From positions 1 to 62,308 of the forward strand of contig JBEKCO010000004.1 of the NCBI GenBank assembly GCA_050014835.1: 62,308 nucleotides of DNA. Reading direction: 5' to 3'. The stretch's first letter is position 1. The number at the start of each line of letters is the position of its first letter. A program made the translations under genes and the position numbers. The notes under the pieces are model-generated. The model searched no databases. It had not been told where the DNA came from and was given only the letters and a program-made list of their open reading frames with translations. Origin of the DNA: Acidimicrobiales bacterium. GTDB lineage: Bacteria > Actinomycetota > Acidimicrobiia > Acidimicrobiales > Bog-793. Below, one piece after another: positions 2,701-17,708 of this stretch.

Positions 2701-3678
2701 TCAGGCGCGCCGAGGTTCGCGCTGCGACGGACCCGGCTCGGGCTTGTGCGCGGCCGCTGCGTGCTCCTGGGCGATCGGGTGCACGCCCTTCGGGAGCCGG
2801 CTCGGGTCGGCGAGGATCGTCGTGAGCACGTCGAGGACGGCGCGCACCGGCGCGCCGGGGAGGGCCCGACGACGTTGGGCGACGCCGATGACCCGGGGCG
2901 CGAGACCCTCGACCGGGATGATCGTCCAGGACCTTGCCCGGCGGACCGGCAGCGCGCTCGTCGGCAGGATGGCGAAGCCGCAGCCCTCGAACATGAGCGA
3001 GCGCATGAGCCGGAGGCTGTCCAGCTCGGCCCGGGGGTGGAGCGCGACCCCTGCTGCGGCGGCGAGGGCGTCGAGGGACCTCCGATAGTTGCTGCCCTCG
3101 AGCGGCAGAAATAGGGGGAGGTCCGCGATGTCGACGACCGTCACGGACTCGCGGGCAGCGAGCGGGTGGGATCGGGGGAGAAAAAGGCCGATGTCCTCCT
3201 CGAAAAGCGCCACCGTGTGGACCTCGGAACCGGAGGCGGGGAGGGCAAGCACGCCGAGGTCGATGTCCCCGGTCGCGAGCTGCGTGTCGAGTCCGAGCGT
3301 CGTCGCCTCCCGGAAGATGAGGCGCAGGTGGGGGTGGAGCGCCGGGACGAGGTCGAGGAGTTCAGGCACGATCCACAGCGCGGCGGTCCCGATGAGGCCG
3401 AGCTGGACCGTCCCGATGATCTCCCGGCTGAGCGCGGTGACGTCGGAGGTGAGGGCGTCGAGCTCACCGATCACGCGGCGGGCCCGCTCCACCGCGAGCT
3501 CGCCGGCGTCGGTCAGTCGCCCGGTGCCACGGTCGACGAGGACGGATCCGAGCTCCACCTCGAGCTTCTTCACGTGCGTCGAGACGTTCGACTGCACGGT
3601 GGCGAGCGCGTCGGCGGCCGCCGAGAACGAGCCGTGCTCGGCGATCGCGACCAGGGCGTTCAGTTGCCGCAGGTCCAT
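2701..3678 (-). CDS. LysR family transcriptional regulator
   Basis: MDLRQLNALVAIAEHGSFSAAADAL...QSNVS HTH plus a substrate-binding domain. Confidence 0.95.
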   Translation of the reverse strand: MDLRQLNALVAIAEHGSFSAAADALATVQSNVSTHVKKLEVELGSVLVDRGTGRLTDAGELAVERARRVIGELDALTSDVTALSREIIGTVQLGLIGTAALWIVPELLDLVPALHPHLRLIFREATTLGLDTQLATGDIDLGVLALPASGSEVHTVALFEEDIGLFLPRSHPLAARESVTVVDIADLPLFLPLEGSNYRRSLDALAAAAGVALHPRAELDSLRLMRSLMFEGCGFAILPTSALPVRRARSWTIIPVEGLAPRVIGVAQRRRALPGAPVRAVLDVLTTILADPSRLPKGVHPIAQEHAAAAHKPEPGPSQREPRRA

Positions 3679-3869: not shown

Positions 3870-4799
3870 TCACCAGGGCTTGGCGGAGGTTCTCGATCGC
3901 GAGCGCCTTGTGCGCCGGGCGCTCGCCGGGAGGACCCAGGCGCGGCGCCACGGCGAGGCGTCGGGCCCGCGGAACGCCGGTGTCTCGCCGGCGGCGGCGC
4001 GTCGGCGCGCCGACCACCAGTCCGACTCGGCTTCGTCGGCGAGGAGCGCCACGGACTCTTCGATACGGGCAGCGAAACGGCGGGCGTCCTCTTCCCGGCC
4101 GTCGTGACCTGTCGCCTCGCCGGGCCACAGGGGATCCCCGAAGCGGATCTCGACCTTGCCCCGGCGCAGCGAACTGCTGCCCTTCGGGAAGACCGGCCGG
4201 ACGCCGCGCAGGTGGACGGGGACGACGGGCACGTCGCAGCGTTTGGCGAGGTAGGCGGCTCCACCGCGGAACTCCTGGCCCCAGCCATCTGGGCTGCGAC
4301 CTCCCTCGGGGAAGATGACGAGGTTCCAGCGGTCGGTGAGGAGTTGCGCGGCGAGATCGGCGCTGCGCCGGTTCACCTTTGTCCGCTCCATCGGGATGGT
4401 GCCGAGGGCGAGCGACCACAGCGCCGCCTTCCAGGGGCGGTCGAAGAAGTAGTCCGCTGCCGCGGCGACGACCGTGCGGCGCCGGAAGCGTTCCGGCAGG
4501 CACGCCACGACGATCGAGGTGTCGAGGTGGCTCGAGTGGTTGGCGGCGAAGATCACCGGCCCGTCGAGCGCGTCGAGGTGCTCCCGGCCGAAGACCTTGG
4601 GCGCGGCGACGGCGGCGACGAAGGGACGGGTGACGTTGTCGACGAGCACGCGACGCACGGCCCGTGCCCAGGGCGCCCGCGTCCAGGCCGTGTCGTAGTC
4701 GACTCCGATGTTGCGCCGCTCGATCGGGCGCGGCAGGGTCCCGGGCCACGTCGGGCGGGAGACGACGTCCTCGACGATGCGGGGGAGTCGGACGCTCAC
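3870..4799 (-). CDS. Lysophospholipid (PlsC-type) acyltransferase
   Basis: NHSSHLD and FPEGGRS motifs; GTG 4799 overlaps the upstream stop (GTGA). Confidence 0.92.
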   Translation of the reverse strand: MSVRLPRIVEDVVSRPTWPGTLPRPIERRNIGVDYDTAWTRAPWARAVRRVLVDNVTRPFVAAVAAPKVFGREHLDALDGPVIFAANHSSHLDTSIVVACLPERFRRRTVVAAAADYFFDRPWKAALWSLALGTIPMERTKVNRRSADLAAQLLTDRWNLVIFPEGGRSPDGWGQEFRGGAAYLAKRCDVPVVPVHLRGVRPVFPKGSSSLRRGKVEIRFGDPLWPGEATGHDGREEDARRFAARIEESVALLADEAESDWWSARRRAAAGETPAFRGPDASPWRRAWVLPASARRTRRSRSRTSAKPW

Positions 4800-6385
4800 G
4801 AGACGTCGGCCACGAGCAGCGGCGGAGCGTGGAGGTGCGTGATCGTCGGGTTCCGGCCGACGACGTCCTCGGCCATCTCGAGGGCGTCGGCGAGGGTCGA
4901 GGCGGGTTTGAACCCCATGCGCCGCACGGCGGCCCGGTCGCCGCCGACGATGATCACGGCGCCGAGATGCTGGAGGGCGTGGGCGCACCAGTACCACATG
5001 TAGAACGGGTGGACGCCGTGGTAGGCGTACGAGGTCCGGTAGAGGTGGATGTACCAGGGATCGGTGGCGAACGACTCCTCGTAGCGCTTCTCGATCTCCA
5101 CGAGGTCGGTCGTCTCGGCGAGCACCTGCTCGAAAAAGTCGATGTAGCTCGGGTGGTGGACCGGGTTGAACGCCCACGGCGTGGGGTGGGACATGATGCA
5201 GACCCCGCCCTCGCGCACGAGCGGCCGGCCCCGGTAGAGGTTGAAGAAGTAGCCGAGCCCGAGGCAGGCGACGAGGATCGGGTTCATGATCGAGTTCACG
5301 TTGTACGGGCACAGGTACGGCAGGCCCATCGTCAGGATGTCGGTCTGGCCCTCGACGTAGACGAGCTGCTGGCGGTGGAGGTTCTCCAGCGTGACGTCGT
5401 GGACGGCCTCGACCTCGCCGGCCTGCACCGAGGTGACCGCGTAGGGCGAGAGCATCGACTGGAAGATCTGGCGCGCGAGCCGCGGCGGGGTGCGGTCGAG
5501 CGAGAGCCGGGTCGCGTGGAAGCCGGCGCGGTCGGCGAGCGACCACTCCCACTCCCGCTTCTGTAAGAAGTTGAACTGCGACGGGAACATGTCGAGGTTG
5601 AGCGTCGTCTCGATCTGGAAGATCTTCACGCCGGCAGCCTTGATCAGCCGGCCCATCCGCCAGTTCGAGGAGTGCATCTCGGAGTGGTGACGGTCCATGA
5701 GAGAGCGGCTGTGCTGCAGGACCTTCACGTTGTGGTGGTGACGGAGGCTTCGGTAGCTGGCGAGCCCGGTGGCGACGGATTTGTGGCCGCCGTCCATCGC
5801 CGACAGGTTGATGTTCACGTAGACGAGCAGGTCGCTCTCGGCGGCCCGCCGGTTGATCTCGACGTCCTCGCCCTTGTCGGTGAGGCCGAGGTGGACGAGC
5901 GCTCCGGGGTCCTCGGCATCGTGCTGCTGCAGAAGCCCGTGGGGCGCGAAGGCGTCGAAGACCCGGTCGCCGAGGGCGTGGCGCAACTCGTCGTCGGTCA
6001 TCCGTCGGTGGATGGCGAGCGCGGCGATGAGGACGACGTCGTCCACGCCTGCCGCGGCGGCCTTGTCGAGGACGGCTTCGATCACCCGTTGGCGGATGTC
6101 CGGCCGGCGCATCGGCGGCAGCGGCAGCGAGACGTCGTCGAAGGCGATCGTGAGCCGCATCCCGGGCTTCAAGAGCGCCGAAAGCGGCGCGGAGTCGCCC
6201 AGCGGGTGCTCGAGCGCGTGGCGGATCGACGCTTCGGGGTCGACCAGTCCGTCGAGGGGCTCGGGCGGGTAGACGACCCGGGAACCCTCGGGCAGCCGCT
6301 CGAACCGGAAGCCCTCCCCGTGCCAGAAAACGGTCGGGGGGGTCGACCGGTCGACCTCGAGTACGAATCCGGGTCTCGGGCTCAC
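4796..6385 (-). CDS. Lactate racemase (LarA/DUF2088) domain protein
   Basis: AFDDVSLP, ALAIHRRMT, HDAED and DGGHKS...HH motifs of the LarA N-terminal domain; 529 aa. Confidence 0.82.
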   Translation of the reverse strand: MSPRPGFVLEVDRSTPPTVFWHGEGFRFERLPEGSRVVYPPEPLDGLVDPEASIRHALEHPLGDSAPLSALLKPGMRLTIAFDDVSLPLPPMRRPDIRQRVIEAVLDKAAAAGVDDVVLIAALAIHRRMTDDELRHALGDRVFDAFAPHGLLQQHDAEDPGALVHLGLTDKGEDVEINRRAAESDLLVYVNINLSAMDGGHKSVATGLASYRSLRHHHNVKVLQHSRSLMDRHHSEMHSSNWRMGRLIKAAGVKIFQIETTLNLDMFPSQFNFLQKREWEWSLADRAGFHATRLSLDRTPPRLARQIFQSMLSPYAVTSVQAGEVEAVHDVTLENLHRQQLVYVEGQTDILTMGLPYLCPYNVNSIMNPILVACLGLGYFFNLYRGRPLVREGGVCIMSHPTPWAFNPVHHPSYIDFFEQVLAETTDLVEIEKRYEESFATDPWYIHLYRTSYAYHGVHPFYMWYWCAHALQHLGAVIIVGGDRAAVRRMGFKPASTLADALEMAEDVVGRNPTITHLHAPPLLVADVS

Positions 6386-7665
6386 GCGCTCGTCTCCAGT
6401 TTCTCGTCACGACGGGGGGTAGGTCGTTTCTTGGCCACCGGCTCGGCGGTACGCCGCCACGCGGGGTCCTCGCGGCGGAGGTCGAAGACGATCTTCACCG
6501 ACCCCCGCCTCCCGGCGTTCGCGGCATGGCGAACCGCCTCTTCGTAACGTTCCAGAGGGTAGTGGGCCGACACGAGCCGCTCGAGCCCCGCGGCGGCGAC
6601 GAGCTCGAAGGCGAGGGCGAACGTCCGGCGCGGCCCACCCGGGACGTCCTCCATCCCGTAGGCGTAGGCGCCAACGAGGGCGACCTCCCGCTGCCACAGT
6701 GGTGCGAGGTCGACCCGGACCGTGCCGGGCATCCCGACGAGAACGATCCGACCTCCGGGCCGAACGACTTCCAGAGACTCCGCGATCGAACGCGCCGAGC
6801 CGACGCAGTCGAAGACCACATCCGCCCCGCCCGCGAGCCGGTCGATCGCGCCCCCGCTGGACGCCAGCGCGAGGGTCCCGGTCATCCGGCGGACCGCCCG
6901 GCCGAGCTCGCTCGGCGCGACGACCTCGTCGGCACCGAGGTCCTCGGCGAATCGGCGCTGGACGCGGTACTTGGCGACGGACAGGAGCGCCGAGGGGAGC
7001 GTGTGGTGGCGCACCGCCGCCAGCGTGCAGAGACCGACGGTCCCGGCACCGAGCACGACGACGCGCTCGCCGGGCACCACCTGGCCGACCAGCGCGGCGT
7101 GGACCGCGCACGCCGCCGGTTCGACCATCACCGCGGCCTCGTCGGTCATCCCGGCGGGGACGAGGTGGAGCTGGGCGTCGTGGGCGACGAGTTCGTCAGA
7201 CCACCCTCCGCCGGTGTCCGCGCAGTAGCCGGTCTGCAGGCCCGGACGGATGTGACCAAACGCGATCCGCTCGCAGGATCCCGTGCGGCCCGCGGCGCAC
7301 GACGGGCAGAGCGGCTCGATGCCACGGACGACGCAGGAGAGCACCGGCTCGATGACGACGCGCTTGCCGGTGTGCCGGCCATCCTTCACGACGCCGACGA
7401 TCTCGTGACCGGGCACGAACGGGAACGTGACGATGTCCTCGAAAAACCGCGAGCTCGTCCCGTCGAGTGTCGCGAGATCCGATCCGCAGATTCCGGACAG
7501 GCGCGGCGCGACCCGGTGCCAGTTCGCACCGGGAAGGCTCGGCGGGTCGATTTCGCCGAGCCGTAGCGGGGCGACCCCGATGCCCGTCCCCGATCCCGCG
7601 ACGAGCGAGACGAGCCGGGCGGCGGCGAAGCGGTGGACGAGCCGTTCGAAAAGGAGGGCCTTCAT
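6382..7665 (-). CDS. Zinc-binding (MDR) alcohol dehydrogenase
   Basis: GICGSD, GHEIVG, four-Cys structural Zn site, GAGTVG; ATG 7665 in an ATGA overlap. Confidence 0.92.
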   Translation of the reverse strand: MKALLFERLVHRFAAARLVSLVAGSGTGIGVAPLRLGEIDPPSLPGANWHRVAPRLSGICGSDLATLDGTSSRFFEDIVTFPFVPGHEIVGVVKDGRHTGKRVVIEPVLSCVVRGIEPLCPSCAAGRTGSCERIAFGHIRPGLQTGYCADTGGGWSDELVAHDAQLHLVPAGMTDEAAVMVEPAACAVHAALVGQVVPGERVVVLGAGTVGLCTLAAVRHHTLPSALLSVAKYRVQRRFAEDLGADEVVAPSELGRAVRRMTGTLALASSGGAIDRLAGGADVVFDCVGSARSIAESLEVVRPGGRIVLVGMPGTVRVDLAPLWQREVALVGAYAYGMEDVPGGPRRTFALAFELVAAAGLERLVSAHYPLERYEEAVRHAANAGRRGSVKIVFDLRREDPAWRRTAEPVAKKRPTPRRDEKLETSA

Positions 7666-10067
7666 CCCGCCTGCCCCTTCTCGTCGGTCGGGTGCGGCGC
7701 GCTCAGCTCGTGGGGGGCCGGCGAGCGGGGACCGGTCCGGCGCATGGCGATGGCGAGGGGGACCCACGGGCCGCCGCGGGCCCGCTTCCACTCCTCGATC
7801 GGCCAGCCGCGCCGGCGGGCGATCGAGGCGAGCTTCGGTTCCGGGTTCACGACGACGGGGAGGCCGGCTGCGTCGAGCATCGGCAGGTCGCTCGTCGAGT
7901 CGGCGTAGGCGACGGTCCGTTCGAGGTCGAGCCCGTGGGAGGCGGCCCACTCGCCGAGCATGATCGCCCGCGCCTCGCCCGTCGGGGGCGTCGAGACGAG
8001 CTCGCCGGTGAACCGGCCGTTCTCCTCGCCGAGGGAGGCGCACACGATGTCGTCGAAAAGGGGCCGGAGGGGCGCGATGACGAAGTCGAGCGCCCCGGTG
8101 ATGAGGAGGGTCGGATGACCGAGGGCGCGGTGGGCCCTCACGCGCTCGATCGCACCGGGGAAGGCCCGCGTGAGCAGCAGGTCGCTGAACAGTTCCCAGG
8201 AGTCCTCCCGGACCCGGTCGACGGGCGCGCCCTCGTAGCGCCGGTAGAACGAGCGCAGGAAGTCGCTGCGATCACGACGGTCGATCGCCAGCAGTCGCGG
8301 CCCTTCGAGGATGAGCTCGGCGGCGAGCTGGGCCCTGCGGAGCGGGGCGAGGTGGCGGGTCGCGAGCCAGCCGTAGGACTCGACGACGTTCGAGTTGATG
8401 AGGGTCTGCTCGAGATCGAACGCCGCGCAGCGGGGCTCGGCCGTGAGGATCCGGCGCCGGGAGCGGTCGTCGCGCTTCTCGGTGACGCGCCTACCGGGCG
8501 AGGTGCGCACCCGGGCGTGGGTGACGATGGAGGGGAGGTGGATCTCGCGCACGTACTGCGACCACTCGAGCACCGCCGGGTCGAAGCAGAAGGCCTTCTG
8601 GTCGACGGGGTCGAGCGAGTGGTACAGCTCGAGGGTGCGGTCGATCCGGAAGCGGGCCTCGGTCTCGGCGTACGACCCGTAGAGCTCGACGTAGGCGAGG
8701 GCGCGTTCCGCGAGCTCACGACGTTCCTCGACGCCGAGAGCCCGCTCGGCGAGGTCCCCACGGATCGGGAGCCGCTTGACGAAGCGCTCCGCGAGGCGGA
8801 GCCCGGTCGACGCCCGGCGCAGGTCGGCCTGGACCTTGCCCCGGCCGGGGAAGGACCATTTCGGCACCACGATCGGTTGGCCGTGACTGTCGTAGATCGG
8901 GTGCTCGGTGAACCACCCCTCGCAAAGCGAGACGAGCTTCCCGTAGCGCAGCGGGTTCCGCACGCCGGACGCGATCTGGAACACGCTCTCTTGGGCCGGG
9001 CCCGGCCCGCGGGCCGCGACCGCGATGATCGCCGCCGCGACGAGGTCGACGGGAATCACGTCGACGATCCCTTCGGGCACGCCCGGGAACTGTCGCAGTA
9101 AGCCCCGCGCGTACGAGATGATCACCGGCTCGGCCATCCGGAAGCCGCGGATCCAGCCCGGTACGGGGTCGGCGAGCGAGGACTCGACGATCGAGGGTCG
9201 CACGACCGTCACGGGCAGGTCCCGCTTCGAGGCGGCGAGCGCCACCTCGCCGAGGGATTTCGTGAAGGCATAGGCGTCAGGCCAACCGAGAGCCTGGGCG
9301 CGCGCCCGCCCGAGCTCGACGAGACGGTCGGTCACCCAGTCCACACGCAAGCGCTCGGTCCTTTCGGCGAGGAGCGCCGTCCCCGCCGCGCCGATCTCGC
9401 CGCGGGCTGCCTTGCGAAACTTCTCGAGCTGGGCGGGGGTGCGGCTCGCGGCGTCGGCGTCCGAGCGGGCCCGGCGGGCGGCGTCGACCTCCAACCGCCA
9501 GTCCGGCAGCGCGATGTACGGGCTCTCCGAGATCGGTTCCTCGAGCGCATCACCTCGGTGGCCGCTGCTCACGTAGGCGGTCGAGACTGAGATGAGATGG
9601 GGGAGGGCTTGTCCCCGCGGCCGGTGTGAGGCGACGAGGTCGTTCATCGTTGCCGCGACGCGGGATGGTCCGAGGAGATTGACCTCGACGGCGCTGTCGA
9701 TGGGCGCGTCGAAACTCACGGACGCCGCAGCGTGGACGACGATGTCACAGGAGGCGAGGACCTCTCTGTCCTTGTCGCCGAGACCCAGCCCGTCGGTCGT
9801 CACGTCTCCGGCGACCGTCGTCACACGACGCGCCACGGTCGCTTCGAAGTCGTCACCGAGCTCATGGCGGAGCCGGTCGAAGCAGTCGTTGCGGATGATC
9901 TCGCGGGCCGTGCGGTCAGCGGCGTTCTGGCGCCGCCCGGGCCGCACGAGGACGACGATCTGGCATTCGGGCACGCAGCGCAGGAGACGCTCGACGAGCG
10001 CGGTGCCGAGGAACCCTGTTGCGCCGGTGATGGCGATGCGCTTGCCGGAAAGATCGTCGGCGATCAC
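7662..10067 (-). CDS. Fatty acyl-CoA reductase (male-sterility/NAD_binding_4) fused to a HAD-IB hydrolase
   Basis: ITGATGFLG, HAAASVSFD, YAFTK, RPSIVES, DVIPVD; C-terminal FDLEQTL, ITGALD, AYADSTSDLPML; start GTG 10067 inferred. Confidence 0.88.
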   Translation of the reverse strand: MIADDLSGKRIAITGATGFLGTALVERLLRCVPECQIVVLVRPGRRQNAADRTAREIIRNDCFDRLRHELGDDFEATVARRVTTVAGDVTTDGLGLGDKDREVLASCDIVVHAAASVSFDAPIDSAVEVNLLGPSRVAATMNDLVASHRPRGQALPHLISVSTAYVSSGHRGDALEEPISESPYIALPDWRLEVDAARRARSDADAASRTPAQLEKFRKAARGEIGAAGTALLAERTERLRVDWVTDRLVELGRARAQALGWPDAYAFTKSLGEVALAASKRDLPVTVVRPSIVESSLADPVPGWIRGFRMAEPVIISYARGLLRQFPGVPEGIVDVIPVDLVAAAIIAVAARGPGPAQESVFQIASGVRNPLRYGKLVSLCEGWFTEHPIYDSHGQPIVVPKWSFPGRGKVQADLRRASTGLRLAERFVKRLPIRGDLAERALGVEERRELAERALAYVELYGSYAETEARFRIDRTLELYHSLDPVDQKAFCFDPAVLEWSQYVREIHLPSIVTHARVRTSPGRRVTEKRDDRSRRRILTAEPRCAAFDLEQTLINSNVVESYGWLATRHLAPLRRAQLAAELILEGPRLLAIDRRDRSDFLRSFYRRYEGAPVDRVREDSWELFSDLLLTRAFPGAIERVRAHRALGHPTLLITGALDFVIAPLRPLFDDIVCASLGEENGRFTGELVSTPPTGEARAIMLGEWAASHGLDLERTVAYADSTSDLPMLDAAGLPVVVNPEPKLASIARRRGWPIEEWKRARGGPWVPLAIAMRRTGPRSPAPHELSAPHPTDEKGQAG

Positions 10068-10089: not shown

Positions 10090-10734
10090 TCAACGCCGAC
10101 GCGCCGAAGCCCGGGAGCGACGGGGCGGCGTGTATCGCTTCGAAGGTTTGGGTGGTCCGGCGGCCCAGGGCGAGGTCGACTTCGGCGCGCGCGACGACCG
10201 CCCGCCAGCGGCGATCTCGGCACGTTGGCGGCGCACCATCCGGAGCAGGAGCCAACCCCCGAAAACAAGGAAGATGACGCCGAAGAGGTCGCCCCCGCTG
10301 AAGAGCTCGAAACCCATCATGAAGCTCGCGATGCCGACCAGCGAGGCGCGTCGGAAGATGATTCCGCCGAACATGATGGCGACGAGGATGAGTCCGGCGA
10401 TGAAAAGCTCAAGCGCGTCCGCACGGACCTTCGTGAGGGTGGAGTGGCGGTTGACGAAGTACGCCGCCGCCACCAGTCCGAGCGCGAGGACGGACGCGGC
10501 GACGCTGAACCGGTGTTCACGTTCATCGAGGATTCCTGCGGCGGGCCGATCCGTGGGCGCGGCCGGACCAGTCGCCCGTGCCGGCGCCCTTGGGAGCCAC
10601 GTACCCGGTGAGCGCCAGGAGACTGTCCGGCGGGGGGACGACGCGTCGTTCACGATGTCGTCGTTCGCGTTCGGCGAGGCCGGGGCGCGTCCGTCAAGAG
10701 GGCGGAGCTGACGGTCGGGCGGTTCCGCGGTCAC
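10090..10734 (-). CDS. Hypothetical membrane protein (about 4 TM) with a basic tail
   Basis: Hydrophobic segments followed by PPKPSKRYTPPR; start uncertain. Confidence 0.65.
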   Translation of the reverse strand: MTAEPPDRQLRPLDGRAPASPNANDDIVNDASSPRRTVSWRSPGTWLPRAPARATGPAAPTDRPAAGILDEREHRFSVAASVLALGLVAAAYFVNRHSTLTKVRADALELFIAGLILVAIMFGGIIFRRASLVGIASFMMGFELFSGGDLFGVIFLVFGGWLLLRMVRRQRAEIAAGGRSSRAPKSTSPWAAGPPKPSKRYTPPRRSRASARRR

Positions 10735-10881
10735 CTCACAAAGGGTAGTTGCGAAGGCGCCATGGCATGGAATGGGACGAGCGCGCGCCGGCAGCTGGAT
10801 TGTCGCGCAGGATCCCAGGGGCGACGGTCCGCGGGAGCACGGGGTCGTGGCGCCGGGGCATGGGGTTAGCATTCCGGAGTC

Positions 10882-11195: not shown

Positions 11196-11630
11196 TCAAG
11201 CGGCCACTTCTGCCGCTAGCACCTCGGCCTGCTCGATGACGAGTGCCACGGCTGCCCCCTGCCTGTCCGGCGGATAGTGGTACTTGGTAAGGAGCCTCCG
11301 GATTCACGACCGAAGCAGTGCATGGACTTGCTCCTTCTTGTCCCACTCGACCGTCGCATTCGCACGGACGACCGTGACCAGCTCCTGAGCGATCTGCTTC
11401 AGCACGTCGTCGCCCAGTTCCATGACAGCCGAGTCGTTCTGGCACACGGCGTCGTAGAACACGAGCTCGTCGTCACGAAGACCGAGGGCGGCCCCTCGCT
11501 CGTGCTCGATCTTCATCTCCTTGGCGAGTTCCACCAGCTCCGCAATGACCTCGGCTGCGGTGAGCGAGCGGTTGTTGTAGGCCTTCATGGTCCGCTCCAG
11601 CATCTCTGAGAACCGCCGCTCGGCGACGAG
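11196..11630 (-). pseudogene. hsdR: C-terminal remnant (DUF3387-like) of a type I restriction subunit HsdR
   Basis: RFSEMLE..YNNRSLTAAEVIAELVELAK..ELVFYDA..ATVEW..LLRS*IRRLLTKYHYPPD..AVALVIEQAE; in-frame TGA at 11306-11304; rest of the gene absent. Confidence 0.85.
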
Positions 11631-12459
11631 AGCAAACCGAGAATACGAGGAGCTGCGCAACGTCCAAAAGCGCGAGCGCGAGCACGAAACGAAAGGCCCT
11701 GCGGCCGTCGCGAGCGTGTCCGGCGTGCACTGCAGCCCCGCCGAGGGCGAGCGATGCCGCGAAGCTGAGCGTGCCCATGATGTCTGGACGACGAGGCGCG
11801 AAGCTGACCAGCCCGGAAGACAGCACCAGGAGTCCTCCAGCAAGCGCAAGACTTTTCTCGAGGCTGAGACGCTGAGGCAGACCGAGGACCCCGAGAGAGC
11901 GGTCAAGCTCACGGTCAGGCAGGACGTTCAACAAGTGCGCGGCAACTCCGAGGGTTCCGGCCGCTACTGGCGCCCACGGCGGTGGGAAGGAAGCGTTTTC
12001 TCGGCTCAGCTGAACGAAGACCGGAAGCAGTGAGAAGGAGAGAGCGTAGGGGACAAAAGAGGCCGGCGTGGACTTTAGGCCGGCATTGTAAGAGGCAGCG
12101 CTGAGCACGGCTGCGAGGTGCGTCAGGCCGCCCGTTCGCCCGTTAGCAAGTGATGCCGGAACACAACAGATCCCTGCAAGCACCGAGGCAGCTCCGACGA
12201 GACTCTCGGTGACTTCGCCGTTCGCGATCGGCTTGTCCCGTCGTCCTGCGAGCTGGTCGCGTACCGCATCAGTCCAATCGTTTTGCCATCCAATCGCGAG
12301 CTGGCCCGAGGACACCGCGAGACCGACCCGAATCGCCTCCCGACGGGTGCACCCGATCGCGAGTGCATAGCCGACGGCAGCTGCACTCACCGCGACCACT
12401 GGTCCGGGATGAGAGGCGCGCGCGAGACCGACGACCGAACGCGTCGGGCCAGGAGCCAT
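11473..12459 (-). CDS. UbiA family prenyltransferase; 3' end runs into the hsdR remnant
   Basis: LARASHPGP, GWQNDWTDAVRD..RRDKPI, HLLNVLPD..D motifs; multiple TM helices. Confidence 0.85.
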   Translation of the reverse strand: MAPGPTRSVVGLARASHPGPVVAVSAAAVGYALAIGCTRREAIRVGLAVSSGQLAIGWQNDWTDAVRDQLAGRRDKPIANGEVTESLVGAASVLAGICCVPASLANGRTGGLTHLAAVLSAASYNAGLKSTPASFVPYALSFSLLPVFVQLSRENASFPPPWAPVAAGTLGVAAHLLNVLPDRELDRSLGVLGLPQRLSLEKSLALAGGLLVLSSGLVSFAPRRPDIMGTLSFAASLALGGAAVHAGHARDGRRAFRFVLALALLDVAQLLVFSVCSRRRAAVLRDAGADHEGLQQPLAHRSRGHCGAGGTRQGDEDRARARGRPRSS

Positions 12460-12588
12460 TGCGACGACTTTGTTGACTACGCGTTCACGTTTGGCTTGGA
12501 CTGAGGTTGTCACGGGTAGCGACGCTAGGTGGTGCGCAGCTGTGCAACATAGAGCGCGAGCCCCGGTCCGAAAGAAAGAGATAGTGGG

Positions 12589-13140
12589 TCAGTTTGAGAC
12601 GGAACCGTGATCGGGCTCCTTTCGCCATTCGACCGGTTGGCGGAGAATGTGGCCCGTGAGGGGGTCGGTCACTGACTCCGGCAGTTGACAGTCTTCGAAG
12701 TGCGAGCGCACCAGGTGGAACGAGGCCGAGGCGGCGTCGTTTAGCTCGTTGGACACGCGCTTGGGCGGGCACGCGATAATCACGCGTCGATTCGGATACC
12801 GGAAAGGGATCTCCTTTACGACGGGAACCTGATCGCTGTCACCCGAAATCAGGAGCGCCGCGTCGTACAGGCCGTCGTAGGCGTCCCCGAGCATGTGGAC
12901 GGCGATGCTTACGTCGGTCTGCTTCTCTTCTCGACGGTCCCACTCTTTTCCACACGACTCGCATTGCACTGGATTCCAGATGAAGTTGCCGTAGACGATT
13001 TCGATGTTTCCGCGAGCCACTAGGGCATCAAGATAGTCCGATTGCCTCTGCACGCTGCCCTCTGGCCATCCGACGCGGGACGTGAAGTATGTGACCGCAA
13101 CCAACTCTTGAGACGACTTGAGGATGTTTGCTGCGAGGGC
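12589..13140 (-). pseudogene. NYN (LabA/DUF88) domain ribonuclease, N-terminally truncated
   Basis: YFTSRV, EEKQTDVSIA, LISGDSD motifs present; the first catalytic (Y/F)xDGxN strand is missing and replaced by low-complexity sequence. Confidence 0.75.
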
Positions 13141-13517
13141 CGGGAGCGCCGCCGCAGGCGCTGACAGCGGCGGACGAGCTCGGGCACCTCGGGTGCCGGG
13201 GGAGCCCCGGACCACTCCCACTCGTTCACGGGCTCAGGGGGAGCCGCGCCTGGGCTCGCTCAGGCCGGCCCGTTCCGTTGGGTCGTCGACCGCACGCAGC
13301 CACTCACTGCGTTGGTCGCGCCTTCGATCTCCGCGCGCGGCCGGCTCAACCACACAGCGTGGTCATTCTGCCACCAAAAGTGAGCAACATGTGCTAGATC
13401 GAACTATCTGTGAGTCCGGTTACGCGGCTGTTGACTAGTGCCGCGGGTGCCGTTGTGCACCCGACATGGCTGCGTACGTGTCTGTCCGGGTGCCAGGTCT
13501 GAGGGGAGGATGCCTCC

Positions 13518-15470
13518 ATGCCCGCCCGCATTCCGAACACTGACCACAGAAAGTGGTGGCACGGAGAGTGGTCGTCTGTCGCGACCACGTCAGTGACCCA
13601 CCACACTGCGCCCCGTGCACGCCGCAACGGGGCGCATCGCCTCCTCGCCACCGGCATCGCGGCGACCGCAACCATCCTGGCCTGCCAGGCAGGCTTCGTG
13701 GGTGTCGCCCTCCCCGCTGCCGTGGTGCGGCCGAACCTGCGCACCGCGTTGGGACTTCCCCACAAAACGCGGCCGACTGCTACCGCGCCTCGGATCACGA
13801 TGCAGCCCGTCACGGTCGCCGTCGCCCTTGGAGCGCGGGCGCGTTTCGAGGCGAAAGCGTCGGGCTCACCGATGCCGCGAGCGCAGTGGCAGGTGTCAAA
13901 GAACAGCGGGAAGTCCTGGGCCCGCGTTCCCGGCGCGACGTCGGAGATGTACTCGGTCGTTGGCAGCACGTCCCGGGGTGGTGAGGAGTTCCGAGTCGTC
14001 TTCCACAACCCGTCCGGCTCTGCGATGACCAAGGCCGCCTCGCTCCGGCTGACAGGGGCAACGAAGGACCTCGCGGGCACGTCGGCAAACGCCCTCAGGA
14101 TCGTGTCGACCTCCTCCCCGCAGCACAGGTCGAGCTCCGGGGGAGGGTCCGGCTCAACGGGAGGGTCCGGCTCATCGGGAGGGTCCGGCTCAACGGGAGG
14201 GTCCGGTTCGACGGGCGCTGCAGACCAGGCTCCGGCTATCACCACGCAACCGCAGAGCTCGACCGTCACCGCTGGAGCGACGGTCAGCTTCGTCTCGTCG
14301 GCAACCGGGACTCCCGTTCCGACGGTCGCCTGGCAGGTGTCGACGAACAGCGGAGGGACCTGGACCGGAATCACGGGCGCGAATTCCGACACGTACTCCT
14401 TCGTTGCATCGGTCTCTCAGAGCGGAGACGCGTTCCGCGCCGTCTTCACGAATGTGGCGGGTTCGGCGACGTCTGACGCCGCAACCCTCGCGGTCACGTC
14501 GCAGGTCGTCTCGGGGGGTGGCACGATCATCGCTGGAAACTCCAAGGCGAACTGCATCTACCTCAACGCGGTCAACGGTATCCTCACCGCCGCCGAGCTG
14601 AGTCAGGTGGAGGCGACGACCGGGGTCACCTACAACTGCATCGAGGAGTTCGCAGACGACGATCCACAGTGGTCGAACTGGGTAAACCCGTGGCTGACTG
14701 CCACCGTGAGCGACGGTTGGGACTCGTGGCTCGCCGCCTCGCCGAACCATCAGCTGGTGCTCGGGCTGAATCTCGTCCCGAACAGCGTCTCGCCGTCCGG
14801 GGACCCGACGAACACGGCGTGGGAGGCGGTCTGTGCCTCCGGTGCCTACGACCAGTACGCCGTGACGCTCGCGCAGAACCTCGTCGCGGAGGGCGCGGGG
14901 AACTCGGTCATCCGGCTCGGCAAGGAATTCAATGGGGACTGGGAGAACGACTTCGTCGGCAATCCCACCGACTCCAACTACTCGACGGAGATTGCGAACT
15001 GGGACGCTTGCTATCAGAACGAAGTGACCGCGATGCGATCCGTCTCGGGCGAACACTTCCTGTTCGACTGGAACCCCAACACCTGCATCACGGACTTCCC
15101 GTTGGCGCAGGGATACCCCGGTAACGCGTACGTCGACATCATCGGCGCCGACCTCTACGACGCCGACTGCCTCTCGGGCGATTCCGCAGCGGTTGAAGGT
15201 TGGAACGCGTTGTACACCCTGGATGGAAACAGCCAGGTGAGTCTCTCGGAGATCGTCGCTTTCGCGGAGGAAGAGGGCAAACCGCTCAGCATTCCCGAGT
15301 GGGGCGAGGTCTCCGGAGACGACAGCGCGTACATGAGCGGTGTCATCAGCGTCGTCCAGGACAACGACGTCGCGTACCAGAGCTACTTCGACTGCGACTG
15401 TGACTCGATCCTTCCGCTCGGATCGACGATCCCGGTGTCGACGGCCTTGTTCAACAAGGCGTTCAGCTAA
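13518..15470 (+). CDS. Secreted Ig-like-domain (x2) + GH26 glycoside hydrolase (beta-mannanase-like)
   Basis: Two APxITxQP...WQVS Ig-like repeats; IRLGKEFNGDW, YPGNAYVDIIGADLYD, KPLSIPEWG; hydrophobic N-terminal segment; start uncertain. Confidence 0.85.
   Translation: MPARIPNTDHRKWWHGEWSSVATTSVTHHTAPRARRNGAHRLLATGIAATATILACQAGFVGVALPAAVVRPNLRTALGLPHKTRPTATAPRITMQPVTVAVALGARARFEAKASGSPMPRAQWQVSKNSGKSWARVPGATSEMYSVVGSTSRGGEEFRVVFHNPSGSAMTKAASLRLTGATKDLAGTSANALRIVSTSSPQHRSSSGGGSGSTGGSGSSGGSGSTGGSGSTGAADQAPAITTQPQSSTVTAGATVSFVSSATGTPVPTVAWQVSTNSGGTWTGITGANSDTYSFVASVSQSGDAFRAVFTNVAGSATSDAATLAVTSQVVSGGGTIIAGNSKANCIYLNAVNGILTAAELSQVEATTGVTYNCIEEFADDDPQWSNWVNPWLTATVSDGWDSWLAASPNHQLVLGLNLVPNSVSPSGDPTNTAWEAVCASGAYDQYAVTLAQNLVAEGAGNSVIRLGKEFNGDWENDFVGNPTDSNYSTEIANWDACYQNEVTAMRSVSGEHFLFDWNPNTCITDFPLAQGYPGNAYVDIIGADLYDADCLSGDSAAVEGWNALYTLDGNSQVSLSEIVAFAEEEGKPLSIPEWGEVSGDDSAYMSGVISVVQDNDVAYQSYFDCDCDSILPLGSTIPVSTALFNKAFS
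14142..14213 (+). repeat. 18-bp tandem repeat x4 encoding a Gly/Ser linker
   Basis: GGAGGGTCCGGCTCAACG unit, giving GGSGS(T/S) x4. Confidence 0.9.
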
Positions 15471-15544: not shown

Positions 15545-16399
15545 TCAGGCCGCCTTCCCTGTGCGGAGCCGATCGACCAGGTCGAGCAGATCGGTTTGGT
15601 CGCTGGAGAACTTCCTGGCGAACGCGAAACGCCCGCTCCGGGCCTCACGGATCAGGTCCTCCGGGCTGAGAGGAGCCGGGTGCGCACTGCCAAGCCATTT
15701 CGCGTAGGTGGGCTCGCACCCGACCGATGAGGAATCGAGGAACTCCGCCACGACGGTGTGCCAGAACGCCTCGTCGGGGCAGTAGGTGTGGGAGAAATAG
15801 CGGGTGAGGGCGCGATCGTTCCGAGCGACCTCGGCGGCGTGCTCAGCCGTCCGGCGGGTGAACGACCACCACGCGGTGCCGGCGAAGAGACGCCTCCCGG
15901 CGAGCGGGGTCAGCGGGTCGAGCCGGCGGCCAAACCGCCTATTGAGCGCGCTCGAGACCACGACGGCAGGCGAGTGGGGATGGGGGTAGCCCGATCCGCT
16001 CCAGCGGCGTTCGTAGCGCCAGGCGTACTTGTGCGTCTCGGCGTTGGGTGCCGGCACGATCTCCAGGCGGTCGACGGGCGCCAGTTCCCAGCTCGCGAAC
16101 GCTGACGGCGCCAGTATCGGGTAACACTGGCCGCTGATCAAGGTGCAGCGGGAAACGGTCGCGTCGCCGAGCGCAGCTTCGAGCAAGCGTGCCGTCGCTT
16201 CGACCATCGTCCAGGAGCCCCAGTTCGGCTCGAGCGGGTCCGAAAGGAAGCGGATATCGCGGGGGCAGCTCGAGAACGGTGCAAGATCTGCTCGCGCGTC
16301 GATGTGGGCGTACACGAGCGCATCCGCGGGCAGCGAGCCGACGAGGCGGTGGAACATGGCGGGATCCCGGTGGGCGATGATCAGGTACGCAGCGGTCAC
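15545..16399 (-). CDS. GT14/core-2 branching-type glycosyltransferase
   Basis: AYLIIAH, HID, WGSWTMVEA, LISGQCYP, GTAWW, CPDEAFWHT, FARKF; GGAGG RBS before GTG 16399. Confidence 0.88.
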   Translation of the reverse strand: MTAAYLIIAHRDPAMFHRLVGSLPADALVYAHIDARADLAPFSSCPRDIRFLSDPLEPNWGSWTMVEATARLLEAALGDATVSRCTLISGQCYPILAPSAFASWELAPVDRLEIVPAPNAETHKYAWRYERRWSGSGYPHPHSPAVVVSSALNRRFGRRLDPLTPLAGRRLFAGTAWWSFTRRTAEHAAEVARNDRALTRYFSHTYCPDEAFWHTVVAEFLDSSSVGCEPTYAKWLGSAHPAPLSPEDLIREARSGRFAFARKFSSDQTDLLDLVDRLRTGKAA

Positions 16400-16613
16400 G
16401 AGGCCTCCGGCTGAGAGCGCGCCGACGGCGTACAAACTAGGGTCGCGCCGCCCGATCCCGTCCAGTCCGGTCGGCAATGGCACCGGCGACCAGGGATATC
16501 GGGGTGCTGGCCCCAGAATTGCCGCCGTTAGGATCGCCCCGAGTGGCGAATTGGCTCTCGCCGTCGCCGCGGGCGGGCCCCGCTGGGGCGAAGATCGTGA
16601 CGGGGGGCGGGCG

Positions 16614-17708
16614 ATGTCGGTCGGCTTGAGGGGGAGAGTCGCGGCACTTTGCGTTGCCGCGAGCGTGGCCATCGTTGTCGTCGCACCCGGCGAGAGCGCG
16701 ACGGCGGGCACCTCCGGACAGTCTTCGACGGAGCAGCTCGGAATAAGCACCTTCGTCCCGTACAACTGCGAGTCAGCCACGGATTGGTCCCTTTGGGCGA
16801 GTCGTCAGTTCCGGGCCTTCAAAAAGCTCGGCGCGAATTCCGTCGCGCTCGCTTTCCCGATGTACACGTACTCGCTCACATCGAATTCCTTCTTCGCCAA
16901 GGACGTCTGCGGCAGTCCGTACCAGACGCCACCGACGTCGGAGCTCACCCCGCTCATCGACATCGCGCACGCCGACGGTCTCCAGGTCTTCCTCCGCCCT
17001 CTTCTCTACGAGACGAACCTCGCGACGGAGGGCGGCTGGCGCGGCGTCATCGACCCGACGGACCCGAGCGTGTGGTTCGTCAACTACTGGCACGCGATGA
17101 AGCCGTATCTCGTCATGGCCCAGGCAGATCACGTTGAGCACTTCGCGATCGCCACGGAGCTCCAAAGCATGGCCCCGCTCAGTGGTTGGAAATCGATCAT
17201 CGCCCAGGCTCGGCGGATCTACACGGGCGATCTCGTGTTCACGACGACGTGGCTGCCCAAGGAGAACGCCGGGGTCCATTGGCCGAGTACGAGCGCCGGC
17301 TTCGACCTGTACTGGGGACTGCAGGGGCTGCCCGACACGGCGACGGCCGACCAGATCGTCGCCGGGTGGGACAACGCTCTGGCGACGGACAACCCGTTCC
17401 CGCTCATCTCCGTCGCGACGATCTCCGAGATCGGAATCCTTCCGCAGGACGGCGCCTACTCGCAGCCGTACCAGTGGACACTCCCGCTGAACACGAATCC
17501 TTTCAATCAGTCGATCCAGGCGACCTGGTTCACAGCGGCCTGCAGTTTTTTCAAGTCGCACGACATGGGCGGTATCTACTACTGGGGATCGACGATCTAT
17601 GACCAGAACGGAGCGCTCCTCACGAAGCCGAGCATGGGCGCCGCCGCCATAGCCGAGATTCAGCCGCTTTCCCAGAAGGCGATCGCGGAGTGCTTCACCG
17701 GAAAGTGA
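16614..17708 (+). CDS. Secreted GH113-like glycoside hydrolase
   Basis: Signal peptide; LGANSVAL, GLQVFLRP, WRGVIDP, FAIATEL (acid/base), SEIG (nucleophile), GIYYW. Confidence 0.78.
   Translation: MSVGLRGRVAALCVAASVAIVVVAPGESATAGTSGQSSTEQLGISTFVPYNCESATDWSLWASRQFRAFKKLGANSVALAFPMYTYSLTSNSFFAKDVCGSPYQTPPTSELTPLIDIAHADGLQVFLRPLLYETNLATEGGWRGVIDPTDPSVWFVNYWHAMKPYLVMAQADHVEHFAIATELQSMAPLSGWKSIIAQARRIYTGDLVFTTTWLPKENAGVHWPSTSAGFDLYWGLQGLPDTATADQIVAGWDNALATDNPFPLISVATISEIGILPQDGAYSQPYQWTLPLNTNPFNQSIQATWFTAACSFFKSHDMGGIYYWGSTIYDQNGALLTKPSMGAAAIAEIQPLSQKAIAECFTGK

Follow-up and report, generated by a model that had tools for sequence, protein, structure and literature searches.

A conserved four-gene cassette of Actinomycetota with a fatty acyl-CoA reductase fusion and an orphan LarA homologue: a candidate route to ether lipids

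The operon and its four products

The window described here, a stretch of 62,308 nucleotides (positions 1 to 62,308 of contig JBEKCO010000004.1, assembly GCA_050014835.1), originates from an Acidimicrobiales bacterium of peat or soil whose genome (G000) spans 1.93 Mb and is 94.8% complete. Its minus strand houses a cassette of four genes, termed A to D. Gene A (10067..7662, 801 amino acids, GTG start) encodes a fatty acyl-CoA reductase (FAR) of the NAD_binding_4 and Sterile type fused to a HAD-IB domain. It is followed by gene B (7665..6382, 427 amino acids), a Zn-dependent medium-chain dehydrogenase (MDR) of the polyol-dehydrogenase type, gene C (6385..4796, 529 amino acids), a LarA homologue (LarAH) of the LarAH14/15/16 family, and gene D (4799..3870, 309 amino acids), a PlsC-type (lysophospholipid) acyltransferase. 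The A-B, B-C and C-D junctions read ATGA, GTGA and GTGA, start and stop overlapping by 4 bp in each case, and the genes form one translationally coupled operon. The original prediction, made from the sequence and its open reading frames, had described this coupling, the domains of all four proteins and the absence of a synthetase and an acyl carrier protein (ACP). All three descriptions hold: the reading frames and junction letters agree with the first, Pfam and NCBIfam with the second, and AMP-binding and PP-binding domains occur in none of the four proteins (Pfam).

No membrane helices are predicted for any of the products, the sole 19-residue window scoring above 1.6 falling in the NAD-binding domain of gene A. 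A scan of the operon for promoters and terminators returned no promoter-like site and a single terminator-like hairpin with T-run (6331-6349, minus strand, inside gene C), which is probably meaningless, since 2.1 such sites are expected by chance.

The FAR part of gene A covers residues 1-525 (8493..10067, minus strand), with Pfam stretches at 13-347 and 452-511, and the HAD-IB part covers residues of about 546-757 (7797..8432, minus strand), with Pfam HAD at 548-731 and a TIGR01490 assignment. Pfam E-values are 1.2e-57 for NAD_binding_4 and 3.5e-28 for HAD, and the best structural match is PDB 7EOZ, 'fatty acyl-CoA reductase' (E 3.4e-65). Both domains of a FAR, its TGxxGxxG nucleotide motif and its YxxxK catalytic motif are present, and the motifs in the form TGxxGFxG and YxxTK are kept in all relatives that cover them (20 relatives compared, of which L100 is truncated at a contig end). 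The HAD part scores 100.3 bits against TIGR01490 (HAD-IB), for which the cut-off is 98.3, and harbors motifs I-IV as FDLEQT, ITGA, GEARA and DSTSD. Across the aligned rows two of these motifs read FD[LMVI][ED]G[TV] and DSxSD, the window's copy having Q for G. The nucleophilic Asp is found in 21 of 21 aligned rows, while the Asp+2 position is Glu in gene A and Asp or Glu in its relatives. With nucleophile and motif IV intact, the domain is, judged by its motifs, of the phosphatase type.

Gene B carries the Pfam domains ADH_N and ADH_zinc_N, and its closest solved structures are xylitol, L-idonate 5-, sorbitol and galactitol-1-phosphate 5-dehydrogenases, that is, 2-ketose/polyol reductases. Gene D belongs to the Pfam Acyltransferase family (PF01553, 76 bits, 2.8e-21), matches a solved 1-acylglycerol-3-phosphate acyltransferase and contains in translation the motifs NHSSHLD (HX4D) and FPEGGRS (FPEGxR). 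Gene C contains Lar_N (2.2e-38) and scores 895.4 bits against NCBIfam NF052592, over the curated cut-off of 740. This family is named 'NPN-dependent hydroxyacid isomerase, LarAH14/15/16 family', NPN denoting the nickel-pincer nucleotide cofactor. The best PDB match of gene C, 9Q2U (E 3.7e-39), spans both domains.

Conservation of the cassette and its surroundings

The 80 nearest public loci carry Acidimicrobiales, Acidimicrobiaceae or Actinomycetota labels and are metagenome-assembled genomes (MAGs), save for one labelled Acidobacteriota and one labelled 'bacterium', in keeping with the actinobacterial (Acidimicrobiia) origin that had been guessed from the sequence. The order A-B-C-D is held in all 80 as far as contigs extend, the acyltransferase being found in 80, the MDR in 78 and the FAR-HAD in 73, with every miss at a contig end. 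The synteny survey proposed for Acidimicrobiia thus found the order conserved, and the cassette extends across the phylum. NF052592 is matched over its cut-off in 98 of 401 sampled Actinomycetota genomes (tallies of NF052592, LarC, alkyl-dihydroxyacetonephosphate synthase-like and FAR-HAD genes take in a small number of genomes marked as unpublished). In all of 25 loci drawn from diverse Actinomycetota families, FAR-HAD (at full length, with its HAD part) and MDR adjoin the LarA homologue in the same order, one FAR-HAD being cut by a contig end, and the acyltransferase is next in 21. FAR-HAD genes occur in 100 of 371 genomes, almost exactly the set that is positive for the LarA homologue. By comparison, the loci of LarA paralogues below the cut-off in the same phylum have FAR-HAD, MDR or acyltransferase partners in 0 of 10 cases. 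A chance neighbourhood of the four genes was considered and rejected, the order being kept in the 80 near and 25 diverse loci. Within the cassette, conservation is highest for gene C, whose identity over the phylum is 56-71%, compared with 36-58% for FAR-HAD.

Fused forms are also found in the protein collection: MDR-LarAH five times, LarAH-acyltransferase three times, and one each of FAR-HAD-MDR-LarAH and FAR-HAD-LarAH. Their support is weak, because they are single-member clusters and one indel at a 4-bp overlap can create them. Two loci of family f25 (L111, L112) contain an insertion of 2-2.5 kb between MDR and LarA homologue, made up of a protoglobin, a MarR-type regulator and a MOSC protein. 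In a peat metatranscriptome library (run X1, stored as contigs), 28% of the operon's sampled words were recovered, with contigs on all four genes and an identity of at least 99% in 10 of 13 records. Since such libraries can contain DNA, the matches may reflect DNA as well as transcripts, and uncovered parts of the operon carry no meaning.

The genes flanking the cassette in the window (RecA, DsbA-like, GNAT, LysR, membrane protein, UbiA, NYN) are not conserved beyond close relatives, so that the conserved unit is the four-gene cassette itself, ancient within Actinomycetota and uncharacterised. Just downstream lies a LysR-family gene (2701..3678, minus strand; HTH_1 and LysR_substrate in Pfam), relatives of which are present in 37 of the 80 near loci and in none of 30 phylum-wide loci (L097-L126); it is a possible local regulator outside the conserved cassette. 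Upstream, and likewise not conserved with it, are a 260-residue reading frame lacking a Pfam match (10090-10872) and, on the minus strand, a UbiA-family prenyltransferase (346 amino acids) with an NYN-domain protein (11473-13221). Further along, a 650-residue protein with an Ig-like domain and a partial GH26 match (13518-15470, plus strand) adjoins a Core-2/I-branching-type glycosyltransferase (15545-16780, minus strand).

Beyond the near relatives, a search with gene C for homologues of similar length returned only close Acidimicrobiales relatives, and tblastn against plasmids gave 2 weak matches. Members of NF052592 over the cut-off include a 536-residue protein assigned by name to a Myxococcales MAG and a second one to Chloroflexota MAGs, and one Atlas cluster of Lar_N proteins is commonest in Myxococcota. 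A scan of 80 metagenome loci with LarA relatives of about 470 residues (alignment A2) found a FAR, HAD or acyltransferase neighbour in none; these queries score 355-494 bits against NF052592, so the scan covered paralogues and says nothing on orthologues outside Actinomycetota. The contexts of LarA paralogues are mixed (SDR, that is, short-chain dehydrogenase/reductase, AMP-binding, thiolase, CoA-transferase, epimerase-family SDR) and point to no clear substrate. Loci L119 and L125 have an NAD-dependent epimerase/3-beta-HSD-family SDR as neighbour, with a HAD-IB-like gene about 5 kb off in L119, and L123 has a family III CoA-transferase and an AMP-binding enzyme.

Relation to the elb and alkyl-dihydroxyacetonephosphate synthase gene sets

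The cassette had originally been read as a rearranged, elb-like ether-lipid operon. According to a review, ElbA and ElbE of Myxococcus xanthus belong to the NAD-dependent epimerase/dehydratase family, ElbB is a member of the HAD family, ElbC a protein whose function is not known and ElbD a FAR-ligase-ACP-acyltransferase (PMC9131029), which agrees with the make-up of ElbD and the HAD protein that the original prediction had given. At the level of protein families, the cassette has in common with elb a FAR domain, a PlsC-type acyltransferase domain, a HAD protein (HAD-IB here, ElbB there) and NAD(P)-dependent reductases. It differs in lacking acyl-AMP ligase and ACP, in joining FAR to HAD rather than to the acyltransferase, and in its reductase, a Zn-MDR where those of elb are SDRs of the epimerase/dehydratase type. 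Proteins with the ElbD architecture have FAR domains that share 33-37% identity with the FAR part of gene A, covering 98% of its 525 residues (E down to 3e-85), and gene D is 37% identical to their acyltransferase domain over 162 residues (E 9e-26). The four-domain ElbD itself (FAR, acyl-AMP ligase, ACP, acyltransferase; all four carried by ElbD-architecture proteins, P0302) does not occur in the cassette. A search of the 401 Actinomycetota genomes at E<=1e-120, made with a stricter initial screen, found no ElbD-type protein, and a scan of viral contigs with ElbD-like proteins found no ElbD-type locus. The original prediction had also placed a putative DUF2088 protein in the elb cluster; no paper was found that links LarA/DUF2088 to ether lipids or to a FAR or acyltransferase context, although Desguin et al. 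2020, whose Tables S1 and S3 give gene contexts and residues for each LarAH group, may list neighbours.

A line of evidence independent of elb comes from alkyl-dihydroxyacetonephosphate synthase (AGPS), an enzyme specific to ether-bond formation. A tblastn search of plasmids with an ElbD-like protein led to a 'HAD-IB family hydrolase' on plasmid NZ_CP109358.1 of Streptomyces sp. NBC_01562, which is a FAR::HAD-IB fusion of 771 residues with 36% identity to gene A over 777 residues (E 1e-143). Its divergent neighbours are an SDR, a PlsC-type acyltransferase (39% identity to gene D) and a FAD-binding oxidoreductase of 556 residues, the full length of which aligns with solved AGPS structures (2UUU, E 1.5e-114; 4BBY, E 9e-85). 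By homology, this set comprises the canonical ether-lipid enzymes: alcohol supply, dihydroxyacetone phosphate (DHAP) acyltransferase, AGPS, alkyl-DHAP reductase and phosphatase. The element recurs in identical form on another Streptomyces plasmid, which therefore does not count separately. The Streptomyces FAR::HAD-IB gene (L221 7117-11050) is flanked on both sides by two proteins that are paralogues of each other (32% identity), one annotated as ferritin-like and neither with a Pfam match. An independent case is genome G125 (100% complete), where an SDR-acyltransferase-AGPS operon and a solitary FAR::HAD-IB gene lie on different contigs and NF052592 has no match.

Compared with the AGPS route, as represented by eukaryotic GNPAT/AGPS/FAR/alkyl-DHAP reductase and by these two actinobacterial sets, the window's cassette has a LarA homologue and a Zn-MDR where AGPS and SDR stand. 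Common to it and the actinobacterial sets are the FAR::HAD-IB fusion (36-41% identity, one clade), the acyltransferase type (39% identity) and one reductase. An AGPS-type ether-lipid route is also described for M. xanthus, as the operon MXAN_1676-1674, in the same review (PMC9131029).

In a quick maximum-likelihood tree of FAR sequences (29 rows, midpoint-rooted, with SH-aLRT as the only support measure and a truncated row left out), every FAR-HAD fusion falls into one clade (SH-aLRT 96) beside the ElbD-type FAR domains, which are its sister under the midpoint root. The two AGPS-linked FAR-HADs nest within the LarA-linked ones, that of G125 being sister (support 100) to the FAR-HAD-LarAH fused protein P0343. 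AGPS-like genes occur in 79 of the 401 genomes and are rare in cassette-rich families (0 of 5 in f2, 0 of 12 in f3, 0 of 10 in f22, 1 of 21 in f24, 3 of 31 in f25 and 0 of 22 in f28); in the window's genome none is matched at E<=1e-60. The simplest reading of these comparisons would be that one FAR-HAD/acyltransferase lineage works either with AGPS and SDR or with the LarA-like protein and MDR, which suggests that the latter pair may replace AGPS and its reductase. If FAR-HAD serves either pair, the LarA-like protein and MDR would fill the steps of ether-bond formation and 2-keto reduction. The ether-lipid part of the original prediction is thereby supported in part, the accompaniment of the same fusion by AGPS elsewhere being the independent support.

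A different conserved set was observed in three of 40 AGPS-like loci (L227 2776-8484, L231 127-5968 and L232 8051-13836, of genomes G185, G198 and G250). It consists of an MDR with 33% identity to gene B over its full length, a thiamine-diphosphate enzyme of the acetolactate-synthase type and an AGPS-like FAD oxidase with 34-37% identity to the Streptomyces AGPS, while L231 and L232 also hold a metallo-beta-lactamase-fold protein. The presence of an MDR relative beside an AGPS-like oxidase gives a second link of the gene B subfamily to AGPS-like enzymes.

Taken as a gene set, the cassette is a clear variant of the bacterial FAR-based ether-lipid sets, with neither the ElbD megaenzyme nor AGPS; its own features are the FAR::HAD fusion, the Zn-MDR and an orphan LarA homologue with a single catalytic His. 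It probably builds lipids from fatty alcohols, with ether lipids the likeliest kind. A rival reading has no ether bond: FAR, PlsC-type acyltransferase and HAD phosphatase would suffice for a neutral or polar lipid in which the LarA-like protein and MDR tailor the acceptor, such as an ester of the wax type, an alkane-1,2-diol (derived from 2-hydroxy fatty acids) that bears an acyl group, or a monoacylglycerol formed by acylation and then dephosphorylation. HAD-plus-PlsC bifunctional enzymes with the latter sequence of reactions are represented by the plant GPAT4/6 acyltransferase/phosphatases and Rv2483c of M. tuberculosis; compared by description only, they differ from the cassette, where HAD is fused to the reductase and not to the acyltransferase. 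That LarA enzymes work at 2-hydroxy centres, and that all four proteins lack predicted helices, would also suit a non-ether product. Such a product is nevertheless considered unlikely, given that the same FAR-HAD and acyltransferase pair keeps company with a true AGPS homologue elsewhere, and a 2-hydroxy fatty acid substrate in particular is not favoured by the residues of gene C described below.

The LarA homologue and a putative AGPS-free route

The residues of gene C were read from an alignment to LarA of L. plantarum (5HUQ) and the single-His LarAH structures 9Q2U and 9Q3J. Equivalents of the catalytic His108, the cofactor-tethering Lys184 and the nickel ligand His200 are retained. The equivalent of His174 is Asn192, with Asn in 21 of 21 aligned cassette members, and that of Arg75, which we take to be the carboxylate-binding residue of L. 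plantarum LarA, is Leu in gene C, the relatives inspected carrying a non-basic residue there (Leu, Ile or Val). Invariant among the 21 members are 140 of the 529 positions of gene C, including DD, HRRMT, Asn, Lys and HH. Residues of about 265-312 form a family-specific insert of 45 residues with a conserved REWEW motif, which shorter relatives do not have. Lacking a second catalytic His and the Arg for carboxylate binding, gene C is unlikely, on the evidence of this alignment, to be a hydroxyacid racemase; the epimerisation that the original prediction had assigned to the LarA-like protein becomes unlikely for the same reason.

The loss of the second His is in itself shared. LarAH groups 14 and 15 are reported to lack His174 (PMC12611868), and the Frankia LarAH14 was inactive in 7 assays, on lactate, 2-hydroxyisovalerate, 2-hydroxyisocaproate, malate, 2-hydroxyglutarate, gluconate and phenyllactate (PMC7583248). 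With the Frankia protein and the LarAHs of Blautia wexlerae and Streptococcus plurextorum (9Q2U/9Q3K/9Q3J; PMC12611868), gene C has in common a two-domain LarA of about 500 residues. As in the single-His LarAHs, it retains one catalytic His together with the Lys and His that hold the cofactor, and has Asn in place of the second His. Gene C differs from them by its subfamily (NF052592), by the REWEW insert and by its context, which is lipid-related rather than glycolytic or carbohydrate, some carriers moreover lacking larB, larC and larE.

The window's genome does encode larB, larC and larE, all distant from the cassette: larB and larC are adjacent (C11 6822-8656) and larE is located on another contig (C38 7904-8665). 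Since gene C is the sole Lar_N protein of this genome, their presence argues that the NPN cofactor is made for gene C. This would also suit an ordinary NPN-dependent hydroxyacid or sugar-acid isomerase that, with MDR and HAD, makes a small polar head group or backbone, for example a glycerate or sugar-acid derivative, which is then acylated. The family name of NF052592, the activity of MDR relatives on idonate, xylitol, sorbitol and galactitol-1-phosphate, and the tentative tie of the nearest solved single-His LarAHs to carbohydrate metabolism (PMC12611868) all point the same way. The missing equivalents of His174 and Arg75, the inactivity of the Frankia enzyme on the seven hydroxyacids and the fact that no sugar kinase, transporter or aldolase is conserved near the cassette stand against an isomerase, which we regard as quite unlikely.

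The reading preferred here, with a probability of roughly 0.5 and drawn from gene content and homology, is that the operon may make an ether or alkyl-glycerolipid with a chain derived from a fatty alcohol, probably a 1-O-alkyl glycerolipid, by a route free of AGPS. In such a route FAR would reduce acyl-CoA or acyl-ACP to fatty aldehyde or alcohol, and the PlsC-type acyltransferase would acylate a three-carbon phosphate backbone (DHAP or glycerol-3-phosphate). The LarA-like protein, presumably holding a hydride-accepting cofactor, would then take the role of AGPS at the C2-hydroxy/keto centre, either through ether formation with exchange of acyl for alkyl or through a transient oxidation, a hydride-mediated step, that enables the exchange. 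The Zn-MDR would reduce the 2-keto group in place of the alkyl/acyl-DHAP reductase, and the HAD-IB domain would finally remove the phosphate. A further and more tentative proposal, rather doubtful as it stands, is that the LarA-like protein is itself the ether-bond-forming enzyme, using the nickel-pincer cofactor or its pocket independently of AGPS; its chemistry would take place at C2 of an acyl-DHAP or lysophosphatidate-type substrate instead of in the racemisation of a hydroxy acid.

Several points weigh against an AGPS-free ether-lipid route. None of the cassette's members has a known product, activity or mutant phenotype to its name in the sense of a lipid made, a reaction catalysed or a gene disrupted. 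The swap argument stands on two independent cases only; FAR-HAD lies within about 9 kb in none of the 40 AGPS-like loci fetched from Actinomycetota genomes, and an AGPS-like match accompanies the LarA homologue in 6 of the 98 positive genomes. The MDR type of gene B would fit a sugar or hydroxy-acid substrate equally, and four of the 25 diverse loci, all of family f25, have no adjacent acyltransferase (none within about 9 kb). As for the elb-like reading, the FAR, HAD and acyltransferase types match and the FAR is related to that of ElbD, but the likeness of gene D to ElbD is not specific, because the housekeeping Cmk-PlsC of the window's genome matches the ElbD acyltransferase domain as well (39%).

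Cofactor supply and catalytic residues bear on the same question. A LarC match is absent from 11 of the 98 LarAH-positive genomes, 9 of the 11 being in family f28. Five near-complete f28 genomes (G387, G014, G321, G183 and G116; loci L208-L212) have no LarC match and nothing over the cut-off for LarB or LarE, with the cassette intact and the cofactor-binding motifs kept. In addition, the His108 equivalent is lost in 17 of 42 representatives of the wider family (alignment A4). Most of these 17 also lack the Lys and His cofactor ligands, many retaining the REWEW insert, and by their residues such forms look degenerate or non-catalytic.

These observations, together with the fused MDR-LarAH and LarAH-acyltransferase forms, would be explained if the LarA-like protein had no catalytic role but acted as a scaffold, or as the subunit that binds substrate, in a complex with FAR, MDR and acyltransferase. 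Against a scaffold speak the retention of the HRRMT and GG[HW]K motifs in all 21 aligned members and in the five larBCE-less genomes, and the standing of gene C as the best-conserved protein of the cassette; the odds of it appear very low. Carriers devoid of NPN synthesis genes, and the small size of the window's genome, would likewise suit remodelling or salvage of lipids, for example lyso-, ether- or alcohol-containing lipids from peat or soil. FAR enzymes of such architecture generally run in the reductive, biosynthetic direction, however, and the cassette includes no conserved lipase, transporter or oxidase, leaving salvage with only a slight chance. New in relation to what had been predicted are the swap of the AGPS partner, the carriers without larB, larC and larE, and the non-specific likeness of the acyltransferase to ElbD.

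Alkyl glycerol ethers of the non-isoprenoid kind serve widely as biomarkers for soils, peats and sediments, and their bacterial sources are known only in part. The ether-bond enzyme of the AGPS-independent (elb) route is, to our knowledge, only partly known. The cassette is compact, with four proteins predicted to be soluble, and widespread, its LarA family exceeding the cut-off in 98 of the 401 genomes. If the LarA-like protein does form the ether, the same family would supply the ElbC step of myxobacteria and acidobacteria, and one in four Actinomycetota, abundant Acidimicrobiales of peat and soil among them, would make non-isoprenoid ether lipids without having been recognised as producers. 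An orphan branch of the nickel-pincer LarA superfamily, inactive in all hydroxyacid assays tried, also gains its first concrete gene context from the cassette, which thus bears on what new chemistry the nickel-pincer cofactor can do.

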